Positions 169 through 17,345 of a stretch of 17,345 nucleotides of DNA are shown here, in pieces (positions within the stretch are counted from its first letter, which is position 1; each line of letters begins with the position of its first letter). A program made the position numbers and the translations under genes. The notes beneath the pieces are model-generated. The model saw nothing but the letters and a program-made list of their open reading frames with translations, was not told the DNA's origin and made no database searches. The DNA is from a virus (Duplodnaviria; Heunggongvirae; Uroviricota; Caudoviricetes), in the IMG/VR virus record IMGVR_UViG_2690316028_000014, positions 1 to 17,345 of that record, one strand, 5' to 3'.

Positions 169-171
169 AGG

Positions 172-390
172 TTAGTCCTCCCTGTACGGATTTAATTTGT
201 TGTGCAGTTTGTTAAACGGCCCCCATACGATGGAGCTATACCACTCAGCTATTTTTTCTGCCTGTTCTCCTGCTAACCAGATGAGGACTATCGGTGATAT
301 TGGAGCCATTAAAATAAGAAAGAGAAGGAAAAATAGAGCCTCTTTAACCCGACTTTGACGTGGATAATTCTTCCGGAATATTTTTGTCAC
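172..390 (-). CDS. Small membrane protein, hypothetical (72 aa)
   Basis: ORF-track ORF; start overlaps the upstream HNH stop (ATGA-type coupling); one strongly hydrophobic segment (ALFFLLFLILMAPISPIVLIWLA). Confidence 0.5.
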   Translation of the reverse strand: MTKIFRKNYPRQSRVKEALFFLLFLILMAPISPIVLIWLAGEQAEKIAEWYSSIVWGPFNKLHNKLNPYRED

Positions 391-764: not shown

Positions 765-765
765 C

Positions 766-1900: not shown

Positions 1901-2769
1901 GCTGCCCCCTTGGAACGGTAAGAATCCCAGGTGAATGACAGCGTGCACCCGCCGCCGTCGCTCATGCGGTCAATAACACGCTCACTCACGAACGCTGCCA
2001 GTTCTTCTTTGGTCTGGTTGCTGATCAGGATGGTCGGCTTCATACGCTCATAACGGGTGTTGATGATTTCGAACATGATCAGCTTCTCGGCCTCGCTGCC
2101 GAACTGGACGCCAACTTCGTCGATGATCAAAAGGTCCGGAGTGGTGAAGTGCGCAATCACGTCGTTCTCGCAGCGCGTCGCTGTTTTCGACCACGTTGAT
2201 TTGAATTCGCGGGCAATCTTCAGCGCGGTGGTGAAAATTACCGGGCTCTGGTGGTTCTCGATGACATAACGGGCGATCGCCAGGGCGAGGTGGTTTTTAC
2301 CGGTTCCCGGCTTGCCGCACATCACCAGGCCACCACCCTGCTTCAGGCGCTCTGGCCACTTCGCGGCATACGCCTGGCAAACCCGCAGCGCGCGCTCTGA
2401 CTCCTTCCCCACCGGCTGATAGCTTTCCAGCGTGCACGTTACAAAGCGCTCAGGGATTTCGAGCTGGCGCAGCAGGCGATCGATGTTCTGCTGGCGCGTG
2501 CGGTCTTCCCACCGCTTTTTCTCGTCATACAGGAAGGTCAGCTCATCGCGAAGGCAGCCCGGACAACGAGTCGGCGGTGACGGCAGCTTGATCAGGCTGC
2601 TGGTAAGCACGCGTTTACGCTGTTCGTACTCGCCATGTTTCTCGCAAAGCACTGTTTCGAAGACGGTCTCGCAGTTAGGGAGCTGCTCTGGAGGTCTACC
2701 AAGGACTTCCAGCATTTTTTCGATAGCGTCGATTTTTTCGAGCAGTTCCATACTCAGTCCCTCGCCCAA
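1897..2769 (-). CDS. DnaC/IstB-like AAA+ helicase loader (replication protein, lambda P position)
   Basis: Walker A GKPGTGKNHLA and Walker B LLIIDEVG; N-terminal Cys pairs; lies immediately downstream of and overlapping the O-like initiator. Confidence 0.85.
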   Translation of the reverse strand: MGEGLSMELLEKIDAIEKMLEVLGRPPEQLPNCETVFETVLCEKHGEYEQRKRVLTSSLIKLPSPPTRCPGCLRDELTFLYDEKKRWEDRTRQQNIDRLLRQLEIPERFVTCTLESYQPVGKESERALRVCQAYAAKWPERLKQGGGLVMCGKPGTGKNHLALAIARYVIENHQSPVIFTTALKIAREFKSTWSKTATRCENDVIAHFTTPDLLIIDEVGVQFGSEAEKLIMFEIINTRYERMKPTILISNQTKEELAAFVSERVIDRMSDGGGCTLSFTWDSYRSKGAA

Positions 2770-3608
2770 GATGGAATTTCAGTCTGGCCATAGTCCTTGC
2801 CAGCGAAGTTCTCAGATACGCGAGACTGATTGCGGGCTGGCTGCTTGATGCCTTTCGGCTCAAACAATCCCTGCCAGCCGTTCGCAATGCTCTGGTTGAT
2901 GATTTCTTCAGGCTGATATCCGCTGCACTTGCAACGCTCGAGCAGGTTGATGGCCTGGGTAACCGTCTGCTGAGACTTGATCGGTTTCTTCAGGTCGCGA
3001 CGATAATCGACCCATGACTTCCAGACTGAAACTGACAGCCATTCAGGAAGCTCAACACCGGCCGGATCGAACGAAGCCGGTTTGGGGGATTTAGGGGGTT
3101 TATTAATATTGTCTTTATTGTCTTTTGTATGTTTGTCTTTTGTGTTTACCTGATTTGGGTAAGTGTCGTTACCTGATTCGGGTAAACATTTCTTACCTGA
3201 TACGGGTAAATTTACCTCTTTCAGGTAAACTTTGTTTTCGTTACCTGATTTGGGTAATTTCACCCATTCGCTGACCGATTTGTTAATGCCCACAGTTCGC
3301 CCGATTTGGGTAAACACCCCGCGCCTGACTAACGCACTTTTAGCCGCAGAGCATTTGTGTGGGAGGATTCCGGTCAGGGCAGATAACTGATCATTGCTTA
3401 CCCAGTCCGCCTTTTTGTTGAAACCGTATGTTTTGCGCATTACTGCCATGAAGACCAGCAGCTGATGCTGAGACAATCCAGCCAGCATGACAGCCTCCAG
3501 AAGTTCATTGGCGATGCGCGTATAGCCATCATCAAGATCTGCCACGCGCGGCTCCTTAGGTGCCACGTCAGGCACAGGGAAATTGATTACTTCGGCAGTG
3601 TTTGCCAT
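2754..3608 (-). CDS. O: Replication initiator, lambda O-like
   Basis: N-terminal region (ANELLEAV...LSQHQLLVFMAVMRKTYGFNKKADWVSNDQLSALTGI...KCSAAKSALVRRGV) matches the lambda O N-terminal domain family; iteron array and AT-rich tract lie inside the gene as in lambda; RBS GGAG before the ATG at 3606-3608. Confidence 0.85.
   Translation of the reverse strand: MANTAEVINFPVPDVAPKEPRVADLDDGYTRIANELLEAVMLAGLSQHQLLVFMAVMRKTYGFNKKADWVSNDQLSALTGILPHKCSAAKSALVRRGVFTQIGRTVGINKSVSEWVKLPKSGNENKVYLKEVNLPVSGKKCLPESGNDTYPNQVNTKDKHTKDNKDNINKPPKSPKPASFDPAGVELPEWLSVSVWKSWVDYRRDLKKPIKSQQTVTQAINLLERCKCSGYQPEEIINQSIANGWQGLFEPKGIKQPARNQSRVSENFAGKDYGQTEIPSWARD
3146..3313. repeat. Replication origin iterons (ori-lambda-like) inside the O-like gene, with adjacent AT-rich tract at about 3100-3145
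   Basis: Five to six copies of an internally palindromic 17-mer TTACCTGATNNGGGTAA at 3146-3162, 3169-3185, 3193-3209, 3212-3228 (degenerate), 3241-3257 and a partial copy at about 3299-3313; flanked by ttattaatattgtctttattgtcttttgtatgtttgtctttt. Confidence 0.7.
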
Positions 3609-3611
3609 AAT
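3583..3611 (+). promoter_or_regulatory. Candidate sigma70 promoter antisense to the O start (possible OOP-like antisense RNA promoter)
   Basis: TTGATT (3583-3588), 17-bp spacer, CATAAT (3606-3611) on the plus strand, reading into the cII-O intergenic hairpin at 3645-3677. Confidence 0.3.
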
Positions 3612-3690
3612 TGCTCCTGTGAATTGATCCAGTTAATTCCATCTGAAAGCCGTTGGTGTTACAGCACCGCGGCTTTCGCCCATTCTGCGT

Positions 3691-3912
3691 TCATGCTTCA
3701 AAATCTCCCTTCGCTCCATCCCGGTTAGAAATCAGGATGGCCAGCAGCAGCGACATGTTCGGTACCAGGCTCTCCTGCCAGCGGCTTACGGTTGATTTAT
3801 TTCTGCCAGCAACTTCAGCTATACGTGATATCCCCAGATCAGATATCTGGCTGCGTAACCAACTCTCTATCCTCCTAGCCTCCAATTTGTTGCGTGCGGT
3901 TGATGTCTCCAT
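3691..3912 (-). CDS. cII: CII-like transcriptional activator
   Basis: 73 aa; RIESWLRSQISDLGISRIAEVAGRNKSTVSRWQESLVPNMSLLLAIL parallels the lambda CII HTH core as recalled; RBS AGAGGAAG; located downstream of cro. Confidence 0.75.
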   Translation of the reverse strand: METSTARNKLEARRIESWLRSQISDLGISRIAEVAGRNKSTVSRWQESLVPNMSLLLAILISNRDGAKGDFEA

Positions 3913-3950
3913 TTGCGATACTTCCTCTGATTTAATTGGTTATGCCGCCA

Positions 3951-4184
3951 TTAGGCGGCGTTGTTGTCGATCGGTGATGGGAACAGCGTCGGTAAGTCAG
4001 GGCGAATCTGGTAGGCCTGAATTTCACCACCAGTTGCTTTCACGATGCTGTTCACATGCTCCGGAGAAACCTTTGCTTTGTTGTGTAGCCACTTGTAAAC
4101 CGCCTGCTGCGATACTGCGCATGCTTCACCAAGGGCTTTTTGAGACCCGACGATGGTAATGGCGGTTTTAATGGTTGGATTCAT
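3951..4184 (-). CDS. cro: Cro-like HTH repressor
   Basis: 77 aa HTH protein (QKALGEACAVSQQAVYKWL) transcribed divergently from cI across an operator-rich intergenic region; RBS GGAGG. Confidence 0.7.
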   Translation of the reverse strand: MNPTIKTAITIVGSQKALGEACAVSQQAVYKWLHNKAKVSPEHVNSIVKATGGEIQAYQIRPDLPTLFPSPIDNNAA

Positions 4185-4288
4185 AACAACCTCCGTAGTG
4201 AATATAAATGAAGAATAAAACTATGGTTGTATTTAGTCAACAACCATTTTCGTTTGATGAAATAAAACCACGGTTGTAGATTGCGTAT
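4185..4288. promoter_or_regulatory. Immunity switch (OR-like): back-to-back pR-like and pRM-like promoters with ACAACC/GGTTGT operator repeats
   Basis: 25-bp palindrome ATGGTTGT-N9-ACAACCAT at 4223-4247; further ACAACC/GGTTGT copies at 4187-4192 and 4273-4278; minus-strand promoter TTGACT (complement of 4235-4240), 17 bp, TATTCT (complement of 4212-4217); plus-strand TTGATG (4254-4259), 17 bp, TAGATT (4277-4282) ending 6 nt before the cI ATG with no SD. Confidence 0.6.
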
Positions 4289-5014
4289 ATGAAAACGACA
4301 CTCGCTGAAAGACTGAAGGAAGCCAGGACATTACGAGGCCTTACACAAAAGGCTCTCGGGGATCTGGTTGGGGTAAGCCAAGCTGCTATCCAGAAGATAG
4401 AAACGGGAAAAGCTAACCAGACAACAAAGTTGGTAGAGCTGGCAAATGCTTTGATGGTTAAACCTGAATGGCTAAGTTCAGGTGTTGGCCCCATGCGATC
4501 AGACGCTAAAGAATCAAATATTGGTCCTGAATCAGAGTGGGGAACTGTCGACGCATGGGACAAAAACACCCCGCTTCCTGCTGACGAGGTTGAAGTGCCT
4601 TTTCTTAAGGATATTGAATTTGCTTGTGGCGATGGACGCGTTCAATGCGAGGATCACAATGGCTTTAAGCTCAGGTTCTCAAAGGCAACCCTCCGACGCG
4701 TTGGAGCTAATACAGATGGGTCTGGCATCCTGTGCTTCCCTGCTACTGGCGACAGTATGGAACCCGTAATACCGGATGGTACGACTGTAGCCGTCGATAC
4801 GAACAACAAACGCATAGTTGATGGGAAACTGTATGCCATTGGTCAGACAGATGGCGGGAATGGTCAACTCAAGCGCATTAAACAGCTGTATCGTAAGCCA
4901 GGCGGAAAGCTAATTATCCGCAGCTACAACAATGAGGCCTACCCTGATGAAGAAGCTGACATTGATGATGTTGAGATAATCGGCCGCCTCTTCTGGTACT
5001 CGGTATTGCTGTAG
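4289..5014 (+). CDS. cI: CI-type prophage repressor (HTH_XRE N-domain plus S24 LexA-like peptidase C-domain)
   Basis: N-terminal HTH (LTQKALGDLVGVSQAAIQKIETGK); C-terminal GDSMEP with Ser156 and Lys195/198 at lambda-CI-like spacing; candidate Cys113-Gly114 autocleavage site. Confidence 0.9.
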   Translation: MKTTLAERLKEARTLRGLTQKALGDLVGVSQAAIQKIETGKANQTTKLVELANALMVKPEWLSSGVGPMRSDAKESNIGPESEWGTVDAWDKNTPLPADEVEVPFLKDIEFACGDGRVQCEDHNGFKLRFSKATLRRVGANTDGSGILCFPATGDSMEPVIPDGTTVAVDTNNKRIVDGKLYAIGQTDGGNGQLKRIKQLYRKPGGKLIIRSYNNEAYPDEEADIDDVEIIGRLFWYSVLL

Positions 5015-5118
5015 CGGTGGCCTGAAGAGACGTTTGGTTAAGGCCAGCAACGGATCACAACAAACACATGGGGCGGCGGATTAAGGGTGATGGAGAATCG
5101 AAATAAGTTGAGGTCAAC

Positions 5119-5274
5119 ATGAACACGTTCAGCATAATCGCGATACCTTTTTTTGCCCTTTCAGTGGTTCTGTTGACTCTTGGCGCTACCAGGAAGAACC
5201 AAGCCAGCTTCATCGTTGGCGGCGTGTTTATGGCGTCATGCGTGGTTAATGCCATTATCGGCATGTCTCTTTGA
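5119..5274 (+). CDS. Small hydrophobic membrane peptide (51 aa, two predicted TM segments)
   Basis: ATG at 5119 with GAGG 5 nt upstream; MNTFSIIAIPFFALSVVLLTLGATRKNQASFIVGGVFMASCVVNAIIGMSL; below the ORF-track size cut-off; about 100 bp downstream of cI. Confidence 0.4.
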   Translation: MNTFSIIAIPFFALSVVLLTLGATRKNQASFIVGGVFMASCVVNAIIGMSL

Positions 5275-5466
5275 GCGCTATGAGATCAGGCATCCTCGTT
5301 ACTTTGTCATGTGTGACAGCCTGGTATGCACTCTGCGAGCTTTGATGTGGTTTACCACTTTAATAGTCACCGTATCACTAAACTGATTAGCTTTACTCAT
5401 ACTCTTGTGGATTCGCTATTTCTGATGTCAATGCAAAAAAATACTAAGGAAACAAAAAGGATACTT

Positions 5467-5733
5467 ATGTCAGATAACACTATTAAAATCATACCTCAGC
5501 ACATGACCGCCACATCAGTTCTTATTACGCCTGATCGTGCTGAAACAATCATTACTTTTTACCGCCATGAATTTGAGCATCACATGCAGTCTGATGAGCA
5601 AGGAAAGAATAGCTTCCAAGTAAAAGTTGAGTTGACCCCTAACATGTCAGTCTCAATGAGCCCGGATCAAGCTGTTGCATTAGTAAAATCATTACAGGTA
5701 GCTCTCAGGGATAATGGGCTATGGAAAGACTGA
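5467..5733 (+). CDS. Hypothetical protein (88 aa) in the AT-rich cI-adjacent island
   Basis: Track ORF 5326..5733 trimmed to the ATG at 5467 preceded by AAAAAGGA; visibly AT-rich coding sequence; no recognised family. Confidence 0.5.
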   Translation: MSDNTIKIIPQHMTATSVLITPDRAETIITFYRHEFEHHMQSDEQGKNSFQVKVELTPNMSVSMSPDQAVALVKSLQVALRDNGLWKD

Positions 5734-6371
5734 AGCCAGTTTCTTCAGTTCAACCTACCTCAGGAACAACATCATCAGTTCTTCCAAGTATTATAGTTAG
5801 TGCAACCCTAGCAGCGACAACCGTTTCTCCTTATGGGGATCCATCTCAGTACCAAAGTATTGGTATTGATGCTAAGGTATCAAATAGAGTTTCATACGCC
5901 ATGGACGAAACGGGTTTGCGCCCAAGTAAGGAAGATGTAGCGATGAAGAGTGATACCCTGGAGGTAAGCGTGAGCGGAATGTCCAGAGAAGAACTTGACG
6001 CAAAGCTTTCACAAAACAAATCAGAGGTAGAGTCTATTGCTGCGGAAATGCGTCGCGAATCAGCTGACTTTAAAACCTATTATACTCAGCAATTTTCTTC
6101 TATTGAGAGAGGTATTGCTGAAATTAAAGGTGAAATCGGCGGTTTGAAAACGGGACTTACAACGACTCAGTGGGCGATGGCCGTTGGCTTGACTTTAGTT
6201 ACTGTGATTCTGTCTGGCGTGATGTTAGCCTCAAGTTGGATTATCTCCGGCAATGACAAGTCACCATCAGTAACCAGCCCGGCTCCAATTATAATACAGG
6301 TACCGACACAGCAACCATTAACGAGCGCTCCAACTAACCAATCGTCATCACAACAAGCTCCTAAGCAATAA
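5721..6371 (+). CDS. Membrane-anchored protein (216 aa): S/T-rich N-region, coiled-coil, C-terminal TM helix, S/T/Q/P-rich tail
   Basis: Long open frame in AT-rich DNA; start overlaps the upstream stop by 13 nt; alternative internal start at about 5944 with strong RBS TAAGGAAG; TM segment WAMAVGLTLVTVILSGVMLASSWII; followed directly by a terminator. Confidence 0.6.
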   Translation: MERLKPVSSVQPTSGTTSSVLPSIIVSATLAATTVSPYGDPSQYQSIGIDAKVSNRVSYAMDETGLRPSKEDVAMKSDTLEVSVSGMSREELDAKLSQNKSEVESIAAEMRRESADFKTYYTQQFSSIERGIAEIKGEIGGLKTGLTTTQWAMAVGLTLVTVILSGVMLASSWIISGNDKSPSVTSPAPIIIQVPTQQPLTSAPTNQSSSQQAPKQ

Positions 6372-6376
6372 ATAAA

Positions 6377-6403
6377 CCCGGCCACCGCGCCGGGTTTTTA
6401 TTT
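6377..6403. terminator. Bidirectional Rho-independent terminator
   Basis: CCCGGC-cacc gc-GCCGGG hairpin (6377-6394) followed by TTTTTATTT on the plus strand and preceded by AAATAAATAAA (U-tract for the minus strand); ends both the plus-strand island and the minus-strand 68-aa ORF. Confidence 0.75.
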
Positions 6404-6604
6404 GCCCTTCCGTACCATCTCAGCCGCATCCCGTAGCACCCCCTTGTGGATCACGTTCCCGACGGCTTTACGCTTCCCTTCCAGAAATCCCACAATGTTG
6501 TCTTTGTTGATCTCAATCCCGTTGTAAATCAGTTCGAACACCACACACCCAACCTCTCCAGCCATGAAGGCCATCCGGTCATCTGCAAGTTCATCACGTT
6601 CCAT
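6398..6604 (-). CDS. Hypothetical protein (68 aa), convergent with the cI island
   Basis: Track ORF 6398..6958 trimmed to the ATG at 6602-6604 with GGGGGTGG upstream; E. coli-like codon choice; the longer N-terminal extension runs through AT-rich promoter DNA and is rejected. Confidence 0.5.
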   Translation of the reverse strand: MERDELADDRMAFMAGEVGCVVFELIYNGIEINKDNIVGFLEGKRKAVGNVIHKGVLRDAAEMVRKGK

Positions 6605-6688
6605 AGCCACCCCCTGATGTTTTTTGCAGCATAGCACCAATCTTTTATAAAAATAAATTCCTTTTAAATACAACCAAATAAAACCAAA

Positions 6689-6742
6689 ACAACTATAAAT
6701 ACAACTATTGTTGTTGACGATAAAACAACTATGGTTTTTAAT
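6689..6742 (+). promoter_or_regulatory. OL/pL-like operator-promoter cluster driving the early-left (recombination-int) operon
   Basis: Three direct ACAACTAT copies at 6689, 6701 and 6725 (12- and 24-bp phasing) plus an inverted GTTGTTG; promoter TTGACG (6714-6719), 17 bp, TTTAAT (6737-6742); shares CTATGGTT with the OR region. Confidence 0.5.
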
Positions 6743-7287
6743 AAGTCCATCGAAACGAAACATCGACAGCTGAGCGAAGTTAGCCAGCGGCGGACAGCAA
6801 GTCGCCTGCTTCTTTAACAAATCAGACTGAGTGACAGGCAAGCCGTAGCTCTCCTGGCAAAAAGAAATGGCACCCGATGGGATCGAGGTAAGCACTGAGT
6901 CCGTATGCGTACGGTAGGTGTAGAGGACCACGCTGCGATGAGCTGATAAGTCACTCAATTTGAAGCGCTCCGATGATGGGGCGCTGATTCAACTTAGAGG
7001 AGTGATTCCAATGAAGAACTAAAGCGGACAGACCGCAGCCTAAAGGCAATGCAGCAGTAATGATGCCGCCCTGAGTCGCCGAATGGCGAGCCTGTGTAGT
7101 GATGGGTCAAGGTTCTTATATCAAAACAAGCTCCGGTAAAGCAGCGCGAACGCCAGACGCGCACCGGTTATGAGCGGCGATGAGCGACAAGGTCTCAAGG
7201 GCATGTGCGCGGCCACTGCGAGAGTGTGGCGAAGTTTACCAGCAGCTCTTTGCGAGGGGCTGACGGTAAACAAAAAGAGGAGTGTGT

Positions 7288-7629
7288 ATGGCAGATAAAA
7301 AAACGGCGCCACTACTGCTTAACGTAGACGCCAGCGAGGTACTTACTCAGACCGGGGAGCTTTTAAAGTTACTTGAACTTCCAGCCAGTTCCTTTCAGGG
7401 AATTCCTGAGCATGTCGTCGATCTGTTTTTTGACCGTGTCCGTGGCCTGATTGACAACATCGTCCTTAGTGATTTCTCGACCACAGTCAGCACAACTGAC
7501 GCCGGTGAAATTTGTCTCAAAGTCAAAATCATCGGGCTGGTTGAACATCTCACTTCCGCAGTCAGGGCACACGGTCCGCATGGTTTGCATGAATATATCC
7601 TTTCTACTGTTGGGGAGATTAAAGAGTAA
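7288..7629 (+). CDS. Hypothetical protein (113 aa), first ORF of the early-left operon; mutually exclusive with the antisense zinc-ribbon ORF
   Basis: Strong RBS GAGGAG 5 nt before the ATG at 7288; on the strand transcribed from the pL-like promoter; Leu codons mostly CTT/TTA, so it could be a shadow of the minus-strand ORF. Confidence 0.35.
   Translation: MADKKTAPLLLNVDASEVLTQTGELLKLLELPASSFQGIPEHVVDLFFDRVRGLIDNIVLSDFSTTVSTTDAGEICLKVKIIGLVEHLTSAVRAHGPHGLHEYILSTVGEIKE
7369..7590 (-). CDS. Candidate zinc-ribbon protein (73 aa), antisense to the 7288-7629 ORF
   Basis: CPDCG-(19 aa)-CADCG four-Cys motif; RBS AAAGGA 7 nt before the ATG at 7588-7590; host-preferred codons; the Arg-rich N-terminal extension in the track (to 7821) is rejected. 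Confidence 0.35.
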   Translation of the reverse strand: MQTMRTVCPDCGSEMFNQPDDFDFETNFTGVSCADCGREITKDDVVNQATDTVKKQIDDMLRNSLKGTGWKFK

Positions 7630-7848
7630 GCGATTTCTTGCTGTTGGGGAATAGCGGGAAAGCGCGCGCCGGGCGCGGATAAATACCCCGGCACTAACTG
7701 GAATGTTTTGGGCTGGCAGACGGTTATCAGCTAGTTGGTGAGGTAATGGCTCACCAAGGCGACGACGGCCTTCCCTGCTGCTTGAAAGCGGGGAGCCAGC
7801 ACCAAAACATTTCTCCCGCATCAGCGGGTAACGACAGAGGGTAAGGGT

Positions 7849-8094
7849 ATGTCAGATAAGCAGGTTCAACTGTCTGGTAAATGCGTCTTGAAGATAGACA
7901 CCATCAAAGGCAGCAGCACTATCGAAATACCAAAAGTGAATCTCAGCGGCAAAAACAATGCAGACGCTTTGCTTAATGAAGTGTTCCATTTTGGAGTAAT
8001 GCGTCACGGGAAAAACAAGCTTCGCGAAATGCTTGAAGAGAAGCTTGATGGCTACGGGGAAGAGTACGAAAACCATGGCCTCACTTACGACTGA
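7849..8094 (+). CDS. Hypothetical early protein (81 aa, acidic C-terminus)
   Basis: RBS AGAGGGTAAGGG before the ATG; immediately followed by an intrinsic terminator. Confidence 0.6.
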   Translation: MSDKQVQLSGKCVLKIDTIKGSSTIEIPKVNLSGKNNADALLNEVFHFGVMRHGKNKLREMLEEKLDGYGEEYENHGLTYD

Positions 8095-8115
8095 CCCGCT
8101 CCGGCGGGTTTTTTA
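8095..8115 (+). terminator. Rho-independent terminator (tL1-like)
   Basis: CCCGC-tccg-GCGGG hairpin followed by TTTTTT; a second hairpin GGCAGA-N8-TCTGCC follows at 8129-8148. Confidence 0.7.
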
Positions 8116-8255
8116 TCGGCCATACATAGGCAGATTTTCGAGTCTGCCCATTTATGACAACCGGCGGCCATCCACCGCCCATTGAAACACTGAATAAATG
8201 CGTTGAAGTCTTGTATTAACCGTTCCGTTCGCCGCGATAAGGCCAAGAGGAAATC

Positions 8256-8384
8256 ATGGTAAACCAGCAGCAGATCAGAGAGGCCCAACGGCTCGCGTCG
8301 TTCGCGGTGCTCCATCGCAATGCTCCGGCGTGGGAAGAAGCAATACGCCTTTACGCCGTCGCCATCGGGAGGACTCTTCACTGA
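8256..8384 (+). CDS. Small ORF (42 aa), translationally coupled to the downstream gene
   Basis: ATG at 8256 with GAGGAA just upstream; stop TGA overlaps the next ATG (TGATG at 8382-8386); MVNQQQIREAQRLASFAVLHRNAPAWEEAIRLYAVAIGRTLH. Confidence 0.3.
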   Translation: MVNQQQIREAQRLASFAVLHRNAPAWEEAIRLYAVAIGRTLH

Positions 8385-8581
8385 TGGAAACTTTATTCGC
8401 ACTCGTCCTGACCGTGGCAATGACCAACGGTGATTATCAGGATGTCATTCTCGGCGTTTACGACAGCCAGCAGGAATGCAGCCTGGCAGCTACAGAGCAG
8501 AAAGTGTCAGCTGAGTGCTGGCCGGTAGAAAGCATCATCCGCAACGGCGAGTTCCCGGCGAAATCCATCGCGCAGCAGTAA
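8384..8581 (+). CDS. Hypothetical small protein (65 aa; hydrophobic N-terminus, acidic)
   Basis: Track ORF 8330..8581 trimmed to the ATG at 8384; METLFALVLTVAMTNGDYQ...; occupies the position lambda uses for kil/cIII-type genes. Confidence 0.5.
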   Translation: METLFALVLTVAMTNGDYQDVILGVYDSQQECSLAATEQKVSAECWPVESIIRNGEFPAKSIAQQ

Positions 8582-8651
8582 CCACCCTATTCAACCGATC
8601 GGCCTGGCTCAATGCGGGCGGGATCTGCACATCCAAATTTCAGGAGAAACC

Positions 8652-9620
8652 ATGAGCGAAGTAACGGATTTAGTCGTCATTGAGAAACAGAACGCAATGG
8701 CGGTGTTTACCAGTAAGGAACAGCTCGATCCGATTATCGAGGCCATCGAGAAAGAAGCTCGTACCCTGGTACCCGATCTGACTACGAAGAAAGGTCGCGA
8801 CGCGATCGCATCCATGGCGCATAAGGTTGCCCGCTCCAAAACCTATATCGACAACGCCGGCAAGGATCTGGTTGCCGAGCTTAAAGCCCTGCCGAAGCAG
8901 ATCGACGAAAGCCGCCGCATTGTGCGTGAGCGGCTGGACGCGCTGAAGGATGAAGTACGGCGCCCGCTCACAGAATGGGAAGCCGAGCAGGAACGCATTA
9001 AGGCTGAAGAAGCCATGAACGCGATGCACGCCGAAGCGCTGGAGATGAACATCAGGTTCGATCAGGAGCTGGCTGCCAAGTTCGAAGCGGACCACGAAAT
9101 GGCCCTGCTGATGAACAAGGATTTCGACCGTGACCGCGAAGAGCAGCGCCGCCTGGCGGAACAGGCTCAACGCGAGCACGAAGAGCGCATTAAGCAGGAA
9201 GCAGCTGACAAAGCCAAGCGCGAAGCCGAAGAGAGGCATAAAGCGGAATTGGATGCTGCAGCACGTCGCGAAGCTGATGAGAAAGCTCGCGCTGATGCCG
9301 CCGAGCGTAAGCGCAAAGAAGATGCTGACCGTGCAGAACGTGAGAAGCAGGACGCAATCGCAGAAGAAAAACGCAAAGCGCAGGAAGAAGCAGATCGCAT
9401 CAAGCGCGAAGCTGAAGCTAAAGAGAAAGCCCGTCTGGCCGAAGAGCAGCGCAAAGTTGAAGAAGAAGCGCGCCGCGCCGCAGACAAAGAGCACCGCCGC
9501 ACCGTCAACCGTCGCGTCATCGCCGACCTTATAGCTCAGGGCATCCCCGAAGAATTCGCGCAGAAAGCACTGCTGGCGATCGCTGGCGGCAAAGTGCAGG
9601 ACGCGCACATCAAATATTGA
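8652..9620 (+). CDS. Phage protein with conserved-looking N-domain and a long ER/K-rich charged helix (322 aa)
   Basis: RBS AGGAG; about 170 aa of E/R/K/A-rich sequence (KAEEAMNAMHAEALE...EEKRKAQEEADRIKREAEAKEKARLAEEQRKVEEEARR); the antisense track ORF 8670..9644 is a shadow. Confidence 0.8.
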   Translation: MSEVTDLVVIEKQNAMAVFTSKEQLDPIIEAIEKEARTLVPDLTTKKGRDAIASMAHKVARSKTYIDNAGKDLVAELKALPKQIDESRRIVRERLDALKDEVRRPLTEWEAEQERIKAEEAMNAMHAEALEMNIRFDQELAAKFEADHEMALLMNKDFDRDREEQRRLAEQAQREHEERIKQEAADKAKREAEERHKAELDAAARREADEKARADAAERKRKEDADRAEREKQDAIAEEKRKAQEEADRIKREAEAKEKARLAEEQRKVEEEARRAADKEHRRTVNRRVIADLIAQGIPEEFAQKALLAIAGGKVQDAHIKY

Positions 9621-9627
9621 GGCAACC

Positions 9628-9912
9628 ATGAACGCATACCTCACTTATGACCGCATCGAAGATCGGCGCTGGGCTGAACAGCAGCTCACCGACGAGAAAG
9701 AGAAGTGGATCGACGACCGGGCGCAACAAATCATCGACATGATGCCAAAAGAGCCGTCCGGCCTCTTCCACTTCTCCGTACCGATTGACGCCAGTCCATA
9801 CGAAGGACTTCGCAGCGATAAAGCTGGCGAGGCCTACAACGATTTCATTTCGGCAGTTGCTTACGCCCAGGCGGAATACGACTGGGAACACCGTACCGGC
9901 TGCCCATTTTAA
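9628..9912 (+). CDS. gam: Gam-like RecBCD inhibitor
   Basis: 94 aa; MNAYLTYDRIEDRRWAEQQLTDEKEK...LFHFSVPID parallels the lambda GamS N-terminus as recalled ([30 protein letters not shown]...LFESLCID); sits immediately upstream of bet. Confidence 0.8.
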   Translation: MNAYLTYDRIEDRRWAEQQLTDEKEKWIDDRAQQIIDMMPKEPSGLFHFSVPIDASPYEGLRSDKAGEAYNDFISAVAYAQAEYDWEHRTGCPF

Positions 9913-9930
9913 TTTTTGAGGGGATTAACG

Positions 9931-10776
9931 ATGGCAAACGAATTAACAATCACAGCGACGTCGCTTCAGGAGATAGGCGTCGACGTCTCCACCTGGAGCG
10001 CGCTGAAGAACAGCATCTATCCTGGCGCCAAAGACGAATCGGTAATGATGGCGCTTGACTACTGCCGCGCCCGCCATCTGGATCCGTTGCTCAAACCTGT
10101 CCACCTCGTTCCGATGTACGTCAAAGACTCGAAAACAGGTAAAGGCGAATGGCGCGACGTCGTCATGCCGGGCATCGGACTTTACCGCATTCAGGCAGAC
10201 CGCTCCGGCGATTATGCCGGGGCTCGCGAGCCCGAGTTCGGGCCCGACGTAACTCAGACGCTTACTGGTGTCGAGGTGACCTTCCCTCAGTGGTGCAAAT
10301 ACACCGTTTTCAAGCGCATGCCCAGCGGCGAGATCGTCGAGTTCAGCGCTAAAGAATACTGGATTGAAAACTACGCCACCGGCGGACGTGACACCACGGC
10401 GCCGAACGCGATGTGGAAAAAACGCCCGTATGGACAGCTGGCGAAATGCGCAGAAGCCCAGGCGTTGCGCAAGGCATGGCCTGAGATTGGACAGCAGCCT
10501 ACTGCAGAAGAAATGGAAGGCAAATCGCTGGACGTTGATATTCGTGACGTCACCCCGCGCAGCACCACAGAAGCGCTTCCACCAGCAGCAAGCGAAGAAA
10601 CACTTCAGGCGATCACCGATCTCTTAACATCGCTGAATAAAGACTGGGAGCAAGACTTCCTCCCAGTGTGCAGCGACATCTTCAAACGGCCAATTCTTGA
10701 GGCGTCAGACCTCACTGAAGAAGAGGCACAGAAAGGGTTCAACTTCCTTCAGAAAAAAGCTAAGGCGGCAGCATGA
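9931..10776 (+). CDS. bet: Bet/RecT-family single-strand annealing protein
   Basis: C-terminus [40 protein letters not shown] parallels the lambda Beta C-terminus as recalled; start set at the ATG at 9931 (RBS GAGGGGA) rather than the track TTG at 9916; followed by exo with ATGA overlap. Confidence 0.85.
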
Positions 10777-11453
10777 CACCCGAAATTATCCTGGCCAGGA
10801 CCGGCATTGATGTGTCCACCGTAGAGCAAGGTGATGAAGCATGGGCCAAATTAAGGCTCGGAGTTATCACCGCCTCTGAAGTGCACAACGTAATATCCAA
10901 GCCGCGCTCCGGCACCAAATGGACGGGCATGAAGATGTCCTACTTCCACACCCTACTCGCCGAGGTATGCACCGGCGTCGCGCCAGAGGTTAACGCCAAG
11001 GCTCTGGCCTGGGGAAAGCAGTACGAGGAAGACGCCCGCACCCTCTTCGAGTTCACCACCGACGTGAAAGTCACGGAGTCTCCGATCCTGTTCCGTGACG
11101 AGAGCATGCGCACCGCGTGCTCCCCTGACGGCCTTTGCAGTAACAATTTCGGCCTCGAATTGAAATGTCCGTTCACCTCCCGCGACTTCATGAAATTCCG
11201 CCTCGGCGGTTTCGAAGCCATTAAGTCAGAGTACATGGCCCAGGTGCAGTACAGCATGTGGGTGACCGGGAAAGAAGCCTGGTTCTTTGCCAACTACGAC
11301 CCGCGCATGAAACGCGAAGGTATTCACCACGTCGTCGTTGAGCGGGATCCGCAGTACATGACCGATTTCAACGAAATGGTGCCGGAGTTCATTGAGAAGA
11401 TGGACGAGGCGCTGGCGGAAATCGGCTTCACGTTCGGGGAGCAGTGGAAATGA
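10773..11453 (+). CDS. exo: YqaJ/lambda-Exo-like recombination exonuclease
   Basis: 226 aa, called by its position as the partner immediately downstream of bet, with ATGA translational coupling at both ends; family assigned from this context and general sequence character, not from verified motifs. Confidence 0.8.
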
Positions 11454-11878
11454 AACGCGCACCCTTTTACCGCAGGCCAGGGCGAACCTGGCAATTCTCT
11501 GGCCTCCGTGAGCGCGTTATCTGGATGATTCAGACGCGAGGCCGCCCGGTAACCGGTAGCGAAATCGCTGAGAAGTTTGGCGTAACCCTGATCGAGTTTA
11601 ACCGGGTCGCCAACGGCATCACCCGCGGCTCCGGACAGATAGCTCAGATCGTTGAGTCGGAAAAATGGCTCAACGAGGACGGCATCTGCGACCGGACATT
11701 TGACCTGGTAACGAAGCCAAAGGTCATTACACCGCAGGGAAAATCACGGCTATTCACCCGGCGCGCCATTGAGCAGTCGCAGGAAGGCAGACGGCAGGAA
11801 TGCATTGAACGTGCAGCACGCCGTCGCCGCCTGATTGCTCAGGGCCTCTACATCGACGAAATGGAGTCCATCCTATGA
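11450..11878 (+). CDS. Hypothetical protein (142 aa)
   Basis: ATG at 11450 overlaps the exo stop; in-frame GTG at 11444 is the track start; possible HTH-like segment ([22 protein letters not shown]). Confidence 0.6.
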
Positions 11879-12027
11879 CTCACGCTCACGACGACATCAG
11901 GGTAGGCACATTGTGCCTTCCCTTCATTGGTCACGGCTGGCTAATGCCATGGGGTGAAGTGGTCAGCAATCCATTAAAGGCGCAGCGGCTCGCTGAGGAA
12001 TATCGGGAAAGGCAGGAGGCGGCATGA
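11875..12027 (+). CDS. Small ORF (50 aa) coupled at both ends (ATGA/ATGA)
   Basis: ATG at 11875 overlaps the upstream stop and its own stop overlaps the methyltransferase ATG at 12024; GGAG 8 nt upstream; [50 protein letters not shown]. Confidence 0.35.
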   Translation: MTHAHDDIRVGTLCLPFIGHGWLMPWGEVVSNPLKAQRLAEEYRERQEAA

Positions 12028-14216
12028 AATACGGAAGCGTGTGCAGCGGCATAGAAGCTGCCAGTAAAGCGTGGGAACCTCTCGGCTGGAAACCTGCCTG
12101 GTTCTCTGAAATCGAACCATTCCCCTCAGCCGTCCTCGCCCATCACTGGCCGGAAGTAACCAACCTCGGCGACATGACCAAAATCGCCGATGCGGTCCGC
12201 GCTGGTGATGTCGAAGCGCCTGATGTTCTGGTCGGTGGTACGCCCTGCCAGGCATTCAGCATCGCCGGCTTACGCGAAGGCCTGTCTGACGACCGCGGGC
12301 AATTAACTCTTTCTTACGTGGAATTAGCCAATGCAATCGACACAAAGCGCCGCGAACTCGGTGAACCAGAATCAATCATCGTCTGGGAAAACGTCCCCGG
12401 CGTGCTCAGCAGCAAAGACAATGCCTTCGGGTGCTTTCTGGCAGGGCTTGCCGGAGAAAGCAGTGAGTTGCAGCCAGCAGGGGGAAAATGGACGCACGCA
12501 GGTTGTGTGTCTGGACCAGAAAGGGTTATCGCCTGGCGCGTCCTTGATGCTCAATTTTTCGGAGTGGCCCAACGACGCCGACGTGTGTTCGTTGTCGCAA
12601 GTGCTCGAAAAGGATTCGATCCCGCAGCGGTACTTTTTGAGTTCGACAGCGTGCGCCGGGATTCTGCGCCGCGCCGAGAAACGCAAAAGGCTGTTGCCGC
12701 CCTTACTGCACGAGGCGTTGGAACGTGTGGCGCAGACGACAACCAGGCACAAGCTGGACATCTGATTGCTTTTGGCGGTGGCAATACTACCGGCCATATT
12801 GATGTGGCGACCGCCTGCACCGCGCATGGGATCAGATTGGATTTTGATACTGAGACTTTCGCAGTGCACGGCACGCAGGATCCAGATACCAATTGCGAAC
12901 TGGCGCATACACTTGGGCGAAACAACGGACAAGAAAACGCCTGCATCGCATTTAGCTACAAAGATAATGGCGCTGATGCGACGTCGGATTTATCGCCAAC
13001 GATTCGCGCAGGAAACCACGATAAAAGCCATGCCAATAGCGGCCAGCCGCCAGCTATAGCGTATGCATTCAAGGCCGGACAGGGTGCTAAAGCGGGTGGC
13101 ATTGGTTACGCGGAAGAGCAATCACCGACATTAACCAGCGCCAGCAGCGGAACCAATCTTGCACCAGCGGTAATGCATGGCGTGGCAGTTCGACGACTTA
13201 CGCCAATTGAGTGCGAGCGGCTTCAGGGCTTTCCTGATAGTCACACTCTGATCGGCTGGCGCGGGAAGGACGCTGATGAATGCCCGGACGGGCCACGTTA
13301 TAAAGCTATCGGCAATAGCATGGCAGTACCGGTTATGCGTTGGATTGGTGAGCGCATCGCCGCTGCGCTTCCAGTCGAAGAGCCTGCACCGCGCAACTGG
13401 CAGCGCCCGTTCCTTAAATGGGCTGGCGGCAAATATTCGCTGCTGCCGGAACTGGATCGCCTGATCCCCGCAGGGAAACGCCTTATTGAGCCTTTTGTGG
13501 GTGGCGGCTCGGTGTTCCTTAACTCAGACAAGCACGAACGCTTTCTTCTGGCTGACGTCAACGCTGACCTGATTAACCTGTATCAGATGCTGGCGGTGGT
13601 CCCAGACTCGGTGATCTATGAAGCAATGAAGGCGTTCAGGCATCTGAATGATGCCGAAAACTACACGGAAATTCGTGAAGCATTCAACGCGCAGCGGCTG
13701 GATGCGGTTGAGCGCGCAGCAGCATTCCTTTACCTCAACCGGCACTGCTTCAACGGCCTGATCCGTTACAACCTGGACGGTTTTTTTAACGTCGGCTTTG
13801 GGAAATATAAAGCGCCATATTTCCCGGAAGAAGAGATCAGGGCATTTAAGCGGAAGGCTCACTCATGCGTATTCATGAATGCAGGCTTCAGGCGCACGCT
13901 CGCACTGGCTGGTGATGGTGACGTCATTTACTGCGATCCGCCCTATGAACCGCTTCCCGGCACCGCTGGTTTCACTAACTACGCGGCTGGTGGGTTCTCA
14001 TGGGATAGCCAGGTAGAGCTTGCGGAAAGCTGTGTGGCAGCCCACCAGCGGGGGGCAAAAGTGGTAATCAGCAATTCTACCGCACCGCGCGTAATTGAAC
14101 TTTACAAACAGCACGGCTTCACTCTGCACCGCGTAAGTGCTCGCCGCGCTATATCCAGCAAAGGCAGCACCCGCGAAACAGCGAGTGATGTCGTAGCCAC
14201 TTTGGGAGTGCAGTGA
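12024..14216 (+). CDS. Fused DNA methyltransferase: N-terminal C5-cytosine MTase (Dcm-type) plus C-terminal Dam-like N6-adenine MTase
   Basis: C5-MTase motifs SGIEAAS (I), GGTPCQAFS (IV), VWENVPG (VI), QRRRVFVVA (VIII), RRLTPIECERLQGFPD (IX), GNSMAVPV (X) within about aa 1-450; then KWAGGKYSLLP, EPFVGGGSVF and DPPY in about aa 455-730; single uninterrupted 730-codon frame with RBS AGGAGG. Confidence 0.85.
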   Translation: MKYGSVCSGIEAASKAWEPLGWKPAWFSEIEPFPSAVLAHHWPEVTNLGDMTKIADAVRAGDVEAPDVLVGGTPCQAFSIAGLREGLSDDRGQLTLSYVELANAIDTKRRELGEPESIIVWENVPGVLSSKDNAFGCFLAGLAGESSELQPAGGKWTHAGCVSGPERVIAWRVLDAQFFGVAQRRRRVFVVASARKGFDPAAVLFEFDSVRRDSAPRRETQKAVAALTARGVGTCGADDNQAQAGHLIAFGGGNTTGHIDVATACTAHGIRLDFDTETFAVHGTQDPDTNCELAHTLGRNNGQENACIAFSYKDNGADATSDLSPTIRAGNHDKSHANSGQPPAIAYAFKAGQGAKAGGIGYAEEQSPTLTSASSGTNLAPAVMHGVAVRRLTPIECERLQGFPDSHTLIGWRGKDADECPDGPRYKAIGNSMAVPVMRWIGERIAAALPVEEPAPRNWQRPFLKWAGGKYSLLPELDRLIPAGKRLIEPFVGGGSVFLNSDKHERFLLADVNADLINLYQMLAVVPDSVIYEAMKAFRHLNDAENYTEIREAFNAQRLDAVERAAAFLYLNRHCFNGLIRYNLDGFFNVGFGKYKAPYFPEEEIRAFKRKAHSCVFMNAGFRRTLALAGDGDVIYCDPPYEPLPGTAGFTNYAAGGFSWDSQVELAESCVAAHQRGAKVVISNSTAPRVIELYKQHGFTLHRVSARRAISSKGSTRETASDVVATLGVQ

Positions 14217-14458
14217 TGATGAAGCTGATTAATCGCAGTAAGCAATCACCTATTGGTCGCCGCGCTTGCGATGTTGCGCTGGCGGCGCACCACGCAAAAT
14301 ATGGCGATTACGGCAGGCAGAAGCACCAGACAAATTACACCGTTGAGGTGGATGGCATGAAGGTCACCGTCGAAGTCGTCAACCGGGCCACCAGCTATGT
14401 CGCCACAGCAATGATCGGCGTTCGTAAACTTCGAAACCTGCCAGCACAGGCACACTGA
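14216..14458 (+). CDS. Hypothetical protein (80 aa)
   Basis: ATG at 14216 overlaps the methyltransferase stop (TGATG); GGGAG 8 nt upstream; track start at 14213 is an in-frame GTG. Confidence 0.55.
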   Translation: MMKLINRSKQSPIGRRACDVALAAHHAKYGDYGRQKHQTNYTVEVDGMKVTVEVVNRATSYVATAMIGVRKLRNLPAQAH

Positions 14459-14499
14459 ATAACAATGACGGCCCCGACTGGGGCCACTGGAGAACATCG

Positions 14500-14847
14500 A
14501 TGGACGAAGAAGTATTTACCAGAGATGAGGCCGCCGCCTTCCTTAAAGTGGATAAAGGCACGATTGCCCAGTGGATAAAGTCCGGTCGCCTGGCTGCTAC
14601 CCGAAAAAATCCACATAAGAAAAAAAGCCCATACCTGATCTGCAAAACAGACTGTATTGCGGCAGTGAAGAACCCGATCCACAATCAACCTGTGAATGCG
14701 GTTGATGTGCAGGAGGATAAAGCATGTCAATCAAACAACGTGCCGGTACGTGGCACTGCGACTTCGTTACGCCTGGTGGAAGTCGAATTAGACGGTCTCT
14801 TGGGACAACGGACAAAAGGCAAGCGCAGGAGCTCTATGATCAGCTGA
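14500..14847 (+). CDS. xis: Excisionase (Xis/AlpA-type HTH)
   Basis: N-terminal [26 protein letters not shown] matches the excisionase-family HTH; directly upstream of int, overlapping its start by 124 nt in another frame. Confidence 0.6.
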
Positions 14848-15887
14848 AAGCTGAAGCATGGCGAGTTGATAAGATGGGGGAGTTTAAGCCGCGAACGTTC
14901 GATGAAGCGTGCGTTCGCTGGCTTAACGAAAAGCAGCACAAGAAAAGCCTGGACGATGACAAAAGCCGGATCGGATTCTGGAGGATGCACTTCAAAGGAA
15001 TGGACCTGTCAGCAATCACGGAAGACAGGATCTTGTCGGCGGTGAGTTCGATGGTTAATCGCAAACATCGAATGAACTGGGAGGCTAAACGGGACAGCCT
15101 GCTGCGAAGAGGTAAGCCGGTTCCTGAATTTAAGGATAAACCAGCGTCGCTGGCGACGAAGGCGACGCACCTTGCTTTCATCCGGGCGCTGTTACGATGC
15201 GCGGCCAACGAATGGCGATGGATAGCCAAAGCGCCGAACATCAAATGCCCGGTGCCGAAAAATAAGCGTATTCGCTGGCTAACCAAAGAGGAAGCGGCGA
15301 ACCTGATCCGGGAGCTTCCCGAGCATATGAAGCCAGTTGTTATTTTTGCACTGGCGACAGGGCTGCGCAGATCGAACATCACCGATCTGGAGTGGTCACA
15401 AATTGATATGCAGAGGAAGGTCGCGTGGATTCACCCCGAGGACGCGAAAGCAGGAAGGGCGATTGGGGTCGCCCTGAACGAATCGTCCTGTAAGGTGCTG
15501 CGGGAGCAACTGGGGAAACATAACCGTTGGGTCTTTGTTCACACTGAATCATCCGTTCGCCCGGATGGAACGAGAACAAAGGCAGTGCGCAAAATGCGGT
15601 CTGATGCTAACACGGCATGGCGCGCGGCGTTAAGGCGGGCGGGAATAGAAAATTTCCGCTTCCATGACCTGCGGCACACCTGGGCAAGCTGGCTTGTACA
15701 GTCCGGCGTGCCACTCAGTGCGCTACAGGAAATGGGCGGGTGGGAAAGTATCGAGATGGTGCAGCGTTATGCGCATCTGGCACCGAATCACCTGACGCAG
15801 CATGCCATGCAAATCGACTCATTCCTGGCGGGGAATGGCACAAATATGGCACAAGGCGCTTTTGCTGAACTGGTGAATATCGCGTGA
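14724..15887 (+). CDS. int: Tyrosine integrase (P22-like)
   Basis: 387 aa; RBS AGGAGG; catalytic signature [15 protein letters not shown] ... VQRYAHL (R-H-R-Y family); ends 15 bp from the tRNA-Thr 3' end. Confidence 0.9.
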
Positions 15888-15901
15888 ACCCGCGTGGTTA
15901 G

Positions 15902-15977
15902 TGGTGCCGATAAGAGGAGTCGAACCTCCGACCTTCGCATTACGAATGCGCTGCTCTACCAACTGAGCTATATCGGC
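15902..15977 (-). tRNA. thrW: tRNA-Thr (anticodon CGU)
   Basis: Reverse complement reads GCCGATATAGCTCAGTTGGTAGAGCAGCGCATTCGTAATGCGAAGGTCGGAGGTTCGACTCCTCTTATCGGCACCA: 7-bp acceptor stem, D-loop AGCTCAGTTGGTAGAGC, anticodon loop TTCGTAA, T-arm GGTTCGA, encoded CCA. Confidence 0.9.
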
Positions 15978-16091
15978 CCTGAAAGGACATGTTCACGAAC
16001 GTGAATCACGGTGGACAAGGTTAAAACTAACCGGGCGATGCGTCAATGGCCTTGTGAATCAAATGGCTACTTTTGCATCACCCGGTTTTAT

Positions 16092-17345
16092 TTACGCACG
16101 AATGGTGTAATCACCAATGCCGATCCACTTGTAAGTGGTCAGTGCTTCCAGCCCCATTGGGCCACGCGCGTGGAGTTTTTGTGTGCTTACCGCCACTTCC
16201 GCACCCAGACCAAACTGGCCGCCGTCGGTAAAACGCGTAGAGGCGTTAACGTAAACAGCGGACGAATCCACTTCGTTAACAAAACGCTGGGCGTTGCGCA
16301 TATCGCGGGTCAGGATCGCATCGGAGTGTTGTGTGCCGTGTTCACGAATATGGGCGATGGCATCGTCAAGATCGCTGACGATTTTGACGTTCAAATCTAA
16401 TGACAGAAACTCATCGTCATACTCTTCGGCTTTAACAGCAACCACCTTCGCAGGGCCTGCCTGCAACTGCGCCAGTGCAGCTGCATCTGCGTGTAATGTC
16501 ACGCCGCTTTCCGCCATTTGTTTGCTTAATGCGGGCAGGAAGCTATCGGCGATGTTTTTATTCACCAGCAACGTTTCAACCGTATTACATGTGCTCGGTC
16601 GCTGAGTTTTCGCGTTGACGATCACTTTTAATGCTTCAGCGATCTCTACACTTTCATCAACGTAAATATGGCATACGCCTATACCACCTGTGATCACCGG
16701 GATTGTCGACTGTTCACGGCACAGTTTATGCAAACCAGCGCCACCACGCGGGATCAGCATGTCGATGTATTTATCCATACGCAGCATTTCACTGACCAGC
16801 GCACGGTCAGGATTATCAATCGCCTGCACGGCACCCGCCGGTAAGCCGCAGGATTTCAGGGCGTCCTGAATCACCGCCACCGTTGCAGCGTTAGTGCGAC
16901 ACGTTTCTTTGCCACCGCGCAGGATCACCGCATTACCGGTTTTCAGGCACAGCGAAGCGACATCAACCGTCACGTTCGGGCGCGCTTCATAAATCACGCC
17001 AATAACCCCCAGCGGTACGCGACGACGCTCAAGACGCAGGCCGCTGTCCAGTACGCCGCCATCGATTACCTGCCCCACCGGATCGGCGAGGTTGCACACC
17101 TGACGTACATCGTCGGCAATGCCTTTCAGCCGTGCGGGCGTCAGTGCCAGACGGTCAAGCATCGCTTCGCTAAGGCCATTGGCTCGCGCGTCAGCAACAT
17201 CCTGGGCGTTAGCGTTGAGGATGATTTCGCTTTGTGCTTCCAGTTCATCGGCGATTTTTTCCAGCACGCGATTTTTTTCGCGGCTGGAGAGTTGCGCTAA
17301 TTTATACGAGGCTTGCTTCGCAGCAATGCCCATTTGTTCCAGCAT
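16092..17345 (-). CDS. proA: Gamma-glutamyl phosphate reductase
   Basis: Complete 417-aa ORF ([30 protein letters not shown]...) recognised as enterobacterial ProA; start codon is the last three bases of the window; host gene flanking the prophage. Confidence 0.95.

Follow-up and report, generated by a model that had tools for sequence, protein, structure and literature searches.

In the virus record IMGVR_UViG_2690316028_000014 we analysed one stretch of DNA of 17,345 nt (positions 1 to 17,345 of the record), which is referred to below as the window. It carries on the plus strand a single ATG-initiated open reading frame (ORF) of 730 aa plus stop (12024..14216) for a Dmt-type bifunctional DNA methyltransferase (MTase), in which a C5-cytosine MTase is joined to a Dam-family N6-adenine MTase. 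We consider it probable that this gene is an orphan MTase of the type of P1 Dmt, that it belongs to a phi80-like prophage, and that it is made on induction and serves anti-restriction, with a set of recognition cassettes that probably gives the cytosine half multiple targets. What may be new is the recognition region of the Dmt family with its multiple cassettes. The fusion itself is nothing new, as discussed below.

The mechanism that we propose is as follows. The MTase gene presumably has no promoter of its own and is located downstream of gam, recT and exo in the leftward early operon. Hence, it would not be expressed in the lysogen but would be switched on by induction. The enzyme would then methylate replicating phage DNA at the adenine of GATC and at cytosine sites, and the progeny would thereby be pre-protected against restriction enzymes that are blocked by methylated GATC or by methylated cytosine sites. 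Between motifs VIII and IX there are about five short cassettes that resemble target-recognition domains (TRDs). They may set the cytosine targets, and the enzyme probably recognises more than one cytosine-containing site. Gain, loss and exchange of cassettes, together with replacement of the complete adenine module at the linker between the two halves, would re-programme the spectrum of protection.

Cassettes in the variable region of the cytosine half

The 730-aa protein consists of a C5 module (aa 1-445), a short linker and a Dam-family module (aa 461-730). Within the C5 module, the variable region between motifs VIII and IX can be divided into five units, U1-U5, by the indel boundaries found among relatives; all five are encoded on the plus strand. 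U1 (aa 223-250, 12690..12773) has the core ALTARG, is degenerate TRD-like and is of the same type as the sole cassette in the fusion of phage Omnitron. U2 (aa 251-281, 12774..12866), also degenerate TRD-like, has the core ACTAHG, which reads CLTAKG in relatives. U3 (aa 282-310, 12867..12953; core AHTLGRN) is borderline TRD-type and is present in 47 of 154 diverse relatives. The two remaining units are of the canonical TRD type: U4 (aa 311-349, 12954..13070), with the core SPTIRAG ... PPAIAYAF, occurs in 63 of the 154 relatives, and U5 (aa 350-388, 13071..13187; core SPTLTSA) directly precedes motif IX.

These units behave as wholes. The length variation among close relatives (729-815 aa) is due to block indels of about 30-40 aa, all of them inside the variable region, and each indel comprises precisely one unit, gained or lost, with the frame and the remaining units conserved. 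Recombination breakpoints bound U1 on both sides, at about 12686 in comparison with GN05064 and at about 12768-12770 in comparison with MB06022. MB06022 has the cassettes of the window protein and an additional one. Among the 154 diverse relatives a single window-type unit can be found alone (U4 in 29, U3 in 15 and U5 in 8). Combinations are many and their order is sometimes permuted, for example U4-U3, U5-U3 and U2-U3-U5-U4. In the 610-aa fusion of Omnitron the entire variable region is one short U1-type cassette; this protein and P7 Dam are single-cassette relatives that are otherwise intact. Of 127 relatives, 23 have significant internal repeats, with z values at or above 3 and reaching 19, and therefore cassettes do arise by duplication. 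As judged from these comparisons, about five separable cassettes that assort independently make up the variable region.

The original prediction counted 150 residues in the variable region, called it unusually long and took its length as a sign of one uncommon cytosine specificity. Motifs VIII and IX are in fact 202 aa apart. The family has a median of 266 aa here (range 90-423 aa), and the window protein, with a lower value, is thus not unusual. A region of this typical length is better read as an array of separable target-recognition cassettes.

A comparable organisation is known from M.SPRI, M.rho11sI and M.H2I of Bacillus SPbeta-group phages. These are phage-encoded orphan C5-MTases as well, with variable regions of 215-279 aa that contain tandem units of 35-45 aa, each with a core of the (S)PT(L/I)T type, and SPR and rho11s differ from each other by whole-unit indels. 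There, and only there, multispecificity has been proven experimentally. According to reviews, multiple TRDs allow such phages to evade many restriction systems by means of one enzyme (PMC12707154; PMC8936443). The Bacillus enzymes differ from the window protein in that they have no fused adenine MTase. Furthermore, their catalytic cores are only 31-40% identical to that of the window protein, and the variable regions, including the SPR TRDs, do not align. Therefore, the likeness is one of organisation and not of subfamily membership. The accessible papers credit a multi-cassette organisation only to the Bacillus SPbeta-group phages, and a description of tandem TRDs outside Bacillus was not found in this literature.

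For an independent comparison, a position matrix was built solely from five Bacillus TRD cores. Its three highest-scoring positions in the whole 730-aa protein are, in descending order, aa 369, 326 and 296, which lie in U5, U4 and U3, respectively. In 128 representatives of the family, the variable region has 1.43 TRD-type cores per 100 aa and the rest of the protein 0.05 (29-fold), and the number of cores rises with the length of the variable region (Spearman rho 0.55, p = 2e-11). In a phmmer search of the PDB with the variable region, the only matches were to metalloelastase, with E-values of 0.03-0.1. We take them as compositional noise, and no solved structure is of use for predicting the targets.

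By analogy with the Bacillus enzymes, multispecificity of the cytosine half is plausible. Several observations weigh against it. The tail probabilities of the three matrix positions are modest (about 0.03, 0.03 and 0.06), which gives two clear cores and one borderline case. U1 (ALTARG) and U2 (ACTAHG) were not detected by the Bacillus matrix and could be inactive pseudo-domains. Self-comparison of the window variable region by BLASTP and Smith-Waterman yielded no off-diagonal match (z = 0.69). In the AlphaFold2 (AF2) model, the predicted local distance difference test (pLDDT) over aa 221-385 is 30-58, and separate cassettes are not resolved. The same observations, namely only two or three canonical TL-type cores, degenerate cores in U1 and U2, no significant self-similarity and no separate domains in the model, would suit a variable region that forms one large TRD of a single specificity. 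In such an enzyme the cassettes would cooperate on one target, and one cytosine motif would be methylated in addition to GATC. We regard this as possible but rather doubtful, since it would have to accommodate cassettes that relatives have alone or in permuted order, the intact proteins P7 Dam and Omnitron with just one cassette, and indels of exactly one unit that leave the frame and the other units conserved. Moreover, the proven multispecific enzymes SPR, rho11s and H2 are organised alike.

Extending the multispecific reading from the window protein to its family, we tentatively propose that the cytosine halves of Dmt-type proteins from enterobacterial and other proteobacterial phages are multispecific by means of shufflable cassettes, of which relatives have one to about ten, and that GATC methylation is provided in addition. 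For the family as a whole we would put the chance of this slightly below even.

Three relatives deviate from the common layout of the C5 module. In relative P0128 an extra TRD-like cassette (VCHTLTAEAGETGTGDSAPCVAY) is located at aa ~700-745, past motif X and in the linker before the Dam module. This layout recalls M.phiBssHII, for which the title of the respective paper (cited in PMC8936443) reports TRDs at separated locations. The Dmt-type fusions P0131 (1013 aa) and P0132 (1148 aa) contain an insertion of about 340 aa exactly inside motif IV (GGTPC | FTAGH ... VVHN | CQAFS), which looks like an intein with a homing-endonuclease-like region. Apart from the insertion, P0131 is P7-Dam-like.

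The two catalytic halves and the P1 Dmt architecture

The motifs of the C5 half occur in canonical order, with CSGIE at aa 7-11, PCQ at 74-76, ENV at 122-124, QRRR at 183-186, RRLTP at 390-394 and GNS at 430-432. The N-terminal part of the catalytic domain (aa 1-222, 12024..12689) comprises motifs I (CSGIE), IV (PCQ), VI (ENV) and VIII (QRRRR) and a conserved LFEFDSVRRDSAPRRE segment. Motif I is the CSGIE variant that is also present in P1 Dmt. Motifs IX (RRLTPIECERLQGFPD) and X (GNSMAVPV) follow behind the cassettes (aa 389-445, 13188..13358) and are modelled with a pLDDT of 88-96. The inter-domain linker (AAALPVEEPAPRNWQ, aa 446-460, 13359..13403), delimited by homology breakpoints, leads to the N6-adenine MTase module of the D12 class (aa 461-730, 13404..14213), in which KWAGGK is found at aa 465-470, FVGGG at 491-495 and DPPY at 638-641. 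All of these elements are encoded on the plus strand. Thus, the C5 motif set (PCQ, ENV, QRR) and the Dam set (KWAGGK, FxGxG, DPPY) of the original prediction were all located in one frame.

Both pairs of curated models score above their cut-offs over this ORF, and the fusion of both modules in a single polypeptide is genuine. The C5 half reaches 131.7 bits with PF00145 (cut-off 22) and 130.8 bits with TIGR00675 (cut-off 100.65), the latter match spanning aa 5-445. For the adenine half the values are 198.9 bits with PF02086 (cut-off 22; E-value 1.6e-58) and 266.9 bits with TIGR00571 (cut-off 114.85; E-value 2.2e-79, aa 461-725).

AF2 modelling of the full-length protein with 120 close relatives gave a mean pLDDT of 40 and was unusable. 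With a diverse alignment, the C5 module was modelled with a pLDDT mostly above 90 over aa 1-215, apart from a dip in the loop of aa 77-87. Foldseek searches with this model found HhaI, HaeIII and DNMT3 as best matches, with E-values down to 6e-11. In comparison with MB06022, the C5 core has a ratio of nonsynonymous to synonymous substitution rates (dN/dS) of 0.10 and the Dam module one of 0.13, which speaks for function of both halves. For the cassettes shared with MB06022 the ratio is 0.04. It is lower than that of the catalytic core and indicates strong purifying selection, and therefore the cassettes are functional sequence. Judged by its sequence, the N-terminal half is a catalytically intact C5-cytosine MTase. 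In the accessible literature, no characterisation of cytosine activity was found for any Dmt-type protein.

The adenine half matches the solved structures of E. coli Dam with an E-value of about 9e-70 over aa 460-725, and DpnM with about 8e-49. Its best PADLOC match is the model 'orphan methyltransferase' (9.4e-94). Judged by its motifs and model scores, it is a catalytically intact Dam-family N6-adenine MTase. The residues Lys9, Tyr119, Asn120, Leu122, Arg124, Pro134 and Tyr138 of E. coli Dam are those that contact DNA in the Dam-DNA structures. The equivalents of K9, N120, L122, R124 and Y138 are identical in the window protein, as is DPPY. Two exchanges, Y119 to F and P134 to G, count against a Dam-like target, but both are present in P1 Dmt as well. 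Because the other contact residues are kept and P1 Dmt, which is annotated for GATC, has the same F and G, the Dam half likely methylates GATC.

Neither a Dcm-like C5 half nor a resemblance at the level of chromosomal Dam is borne out by the models for the host enzymes. The C5 half obtains only 23.4 bits with the E. coli Dcm model NF007772 (cut-off 710), and the Dam half remains with 274.1 bits below the cut-off of 441 of the equivalog model for E. coli chromosomal Dam, NF008152. Therefore, neither half copies the enzymes of the host.

The protein instead corresponds to P1 Dmt. A tblastn alignment of the two is one colinear piece (aa 3-727, 47.7% identity, 99% coverage), and P1 Dmt and P7 Dam contain the same Pfam pair in the same order, C5-MTase followed by D12-class Dam. 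P1 Dmt also shares the unusual motif I (YGSVCSGIEAAS) and the substitutions at the two DNA-contact positions of Dam mentioned above, and it is a phage-borne orphan that is already annotated as bifunctional. According to its GenBank record, which dates from the genome entry of 2004, it is a 'bifunctional DNA methyltransferase; methylates DNA at N6 adenine in GATC sequences and perhaps at C5 cytosine'; the P7 Dam record is annotated likewise. P1 dmt is reportedly non-essential in a standard host, and its product is described as methylating GATC (PMC10695390; PMC12707154). There are differences in detail. P1 Dmt has several units of other cassette types, whereas P7 Dam has a single cassette, and P1 contains an extra insertion between motifs VI and VIII. 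In addition, P1 is a plasmid prophage in which dmt and hrdC share an operon repressed by C1, whereas the window gene belongs to a lambdoid early-left operon.

The same architecture is widespread. PHROG 116 (phrog_116) spans aa 1-728 as a single family. In a large protein database, more than 100 clusters from Enterobacter, Citrobacter, Salmonella and E. coli (729-815 aa) have both Pfam domains in a continuous frame, most of them under the NCBI name 'Dam family site-specific DNA-(adenine-N6)-methyltransferase', and at least eight distinct clusters at the 50% identity level combine C5 and Dam. The novelty implied for the fusion does not hold, since P1 Dmt and PHROG 116 have the same architecture and hundreds of copies are named at NCBI. 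By these sequence comparisons the fusion has the P1 Dmt-type architecture, which enterobacterial prophages commonly have.

A sequencing error that creates an artificial fusion was named in the original prediction as a possible refutation, to be checked by the continuity of the frame in related prophages. A separate arrangement does exist, as in E. coli GN05064, where the adenine MTase gene stands separately behind a C5 pseudogene. The chance that sequencing or assembly has joined two genes in the window is nevertheless negligible: the frame is continuous in the more than 100 independent clusters, which come from many genera, the fusion is common to P1, P7, SJ46 and RCS47 (dmt) and to Omnitron, and the linker sequence is conserved and is kept even in deletion relics.

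Exchange of the adenine partner and loss of the cytosine module

Nucleotide homology to other phages breaks off or resumes in a narrow segment. Homology to Enterobacter phage CobraSix stops at window position 13374, homology to phi80 resumes at 13359, and matches to the phi80 remnant of E. coli begin at 13377. These breakpoints gather at 13359-13377, in the linker, which is the recombination joint.

CobraSix gp41 (locus L003, 3125-5038) lies at the same locus with the same flanking genes, and its C5 module is 89% identical to that of the window protein over aa 1-453. Its C-terminal partner, however, is a PF05869 'phage N-6-adenine-methyltransferase' rather than a PF02086 Dam, and another cassette takes the place of U5. 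In E. coli GN05064 (locus L004, 2501-4666) the C5 pseudogene precedes a PF05869 adenine MTase that forms a gene of its own. The adenine partner is thus interchangeable at the linker. The synonymous substitution rates (dS) of the C5 core and the Dam module are also different, with 0.50 vs 0.09 in comparison with MB06022 and 1.83 vs 0.12 in comparison with Omnitron. The two modules have discordant histories.

Dam-only genes occupy the same slot, between exo/DUF1317 and DUF4060, in phi80 (damL) and in the Salmonella phage SEN34, with protein identities to the Dam module of the window of 96% and 85%, respectively. In phi80 damL (JX871397, 26494-27379; locus L002, 3125-4010) the first nine codons of the C5 module (MRYGSVCSG) run into linker and Dam, and the gene is also frameshifted. 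It is annotated as a frameshifted Dam pseudogene, and the parts of the window that match it are 12024-12049 and 13359 onward. This relic is the source of the Dam-only matches in DH5alpha, DH10B, NEB and other laboratory strains ('DNA adenine methylase' of the phi80 remnant). In the SEN34 gene (locus L008, 1983-2852) the first four codons of DUF1317 (MTHA) are joined to the linker LPVEK..PRTWRRPFLKWAGGK. The deletion in SEN34 has removed DUF1317 together with the C5 module in a second event, and both Dam-only genes are independent deletion derivatives of the fusion.

At least two deletions in relatives argue that the C5 half is dispensable in some hosts, and this speaks against the mechanism proposed above. 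Where hosts restrict DNA that contains 5-methylcytosine (5mC), as McrBC does in E. coli K-12, one would expect the C5 module to be lost repeatedly. A more radical interpretation is that the C5 half is an inactive relic, or a structural or DNA-tethering part, and that only the Dam half methylates. It would account for the independent loss of the C5 module in phi80 and SEN34 with Dam kept, for the C5 pseudogene in GN05064 and for the word 'perhaps' in the annotation of P1 Dmt. We consider it quite improbable for the window protein, in which all six catalytic motifs are intact, including the cysteine of PCQ and the glutamate of ENV, the catalytic fold is predicted with confidence and the dN/dS values of core (0.10) and cassettes (0.04) are low. 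In addition, the module is conserved across thousands of homologues.

Prophage context and biological role

The window contains the immunity and early-left genes of a phi80-like lambdoid prophage. At 4289-5014 it encodes a cI-like repressor with helix-turn-helix (HTH) and S24 peptidase domains, and a cro-like gene, the O replication gene and a DnaC-like gene are found on the minus strand. On the plus strand follow, in this order, ORFs at the positions of phi80 Agt and GamL, RecT, a lambda-type Exo, a phi80-type hypothetical protein, DUF1317, the MTase, DUF4060, an HTH_17 Xis-like protein and a tyrosine integrase.

The two direct neighbours overlap the MTase gene. The DUF1317 ORF (11875..12027, plus strand; 50 aa; PF07026, 1.7e-15; phrog_1998) shares its stop with the start of the MTase in the sequence ATGA at 12024-12027, with AGGAGG upstream. 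At the other end, the stop of the MTase overlaps the ATG of the DUF4060 ORF (14216..14458, plus strand; PF13269, 3e-42) in TGATG at 14214-14218. Both overlaps had been predicted and both were read directly from the sequence.

The gene had also been placed in an accessory slot near int, which agrees with DUF4060, the Xis-like ORF (14500-14847, plus strand) and then the integrase ORF (14724-15887, plus strand) downstream of it. The latter two ORFs as annotated overlap by 124 nt, and the true start of int may be located further downstream. The homology to phi80 ends at about position 14419, and therefore the int/att module is not that of phi80. The prophage is integrated at tRNA-Thr(CGT) (15902-15977, minus strand). 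Beyond it, a host ORF of the aldehyde dehydrogenase family (417 aa, 16092-17345, minus strand) begins the flank, which presumably is proA-thrW.

A search for sigma-70-like promoters on either strand of 9500-16100 found none, versus 3.6 +/- 1.9 expected from shuffled sequences, and terminator-like matches in the same interval were at chance level only. Such a promoter-free stretch would fit one long read-through operon that is transcribed from an upstream early-left promoter. The proposed timing of expression is read from gene order only.

The gene also qualifies as an orphan, as originally predicted. The flanking ORFs are DUF1317, DUF4060, the phi80-type hypothetical protein, lambda-type Exo, the Xis-like protein and Int. 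In nine neighbouring ORFs, PADLOC models for restriction and other defence systems gave no match except for a weak 'mad1' (9.1e-05) on the Xis-like HTH protein. When most of the window's ORFs with 70 aa or more were checked, nuclease-like domains were found only in the lambda-type Exo and in a marginal HNH endonuclease ORF of 125 aa (387-764, minus strand; E-value 2.7e-4, 21.5 bits vs a cut-off of 21.4). This HNH ORF, which belongs to the rightward operon and lies about 11 kb from the MTase on the opposite strand, is an unlikely restriction partner.

Anti-restriction, which the original prediction had named together with an epigenetic function, is the best-supported reading of the role of the gene. 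The main role could instead be regulatory or epigenetic, with GATC methylation acting on packaging, replication or expression timing, as at the P1 pac site. Processing of P1 pac needs Dam methylation, and dmt is required in Dam-negative hosts (PMC12707154). Besides, GATC is methylated in enterobacterial hosts anyway, and little further protection is gained there from a Dam of the phage. Nevertheless, we consider a predominantly regulatory role unlikely. If the gene served a fixed regulatory site, it would be hard to see why a cytosine MTase with varying cassettes has been added. Two different families can provide the adenine module, and the rapid turnover of cassettes is what an arms race would be expected to produce. 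The dispensability of P1 dmt in a standard host points in the same direction (PMC10695390).

The NCBI label 'Dam family' hides the cytosine half of Dmt-type proteins, and the damL pseudogene of phi80 in DH5alpha and DH10B is explained as a relic of a Dmt-type fusion. If each cassette is indeed a TRD, a single protein from each of these very common prophage genes would serve as an anti-restriction device with multiple targets. This would have a bearing on the host range of phages, on the design of phage therapy and on the 5mC signals in enterobacterial methylomes.

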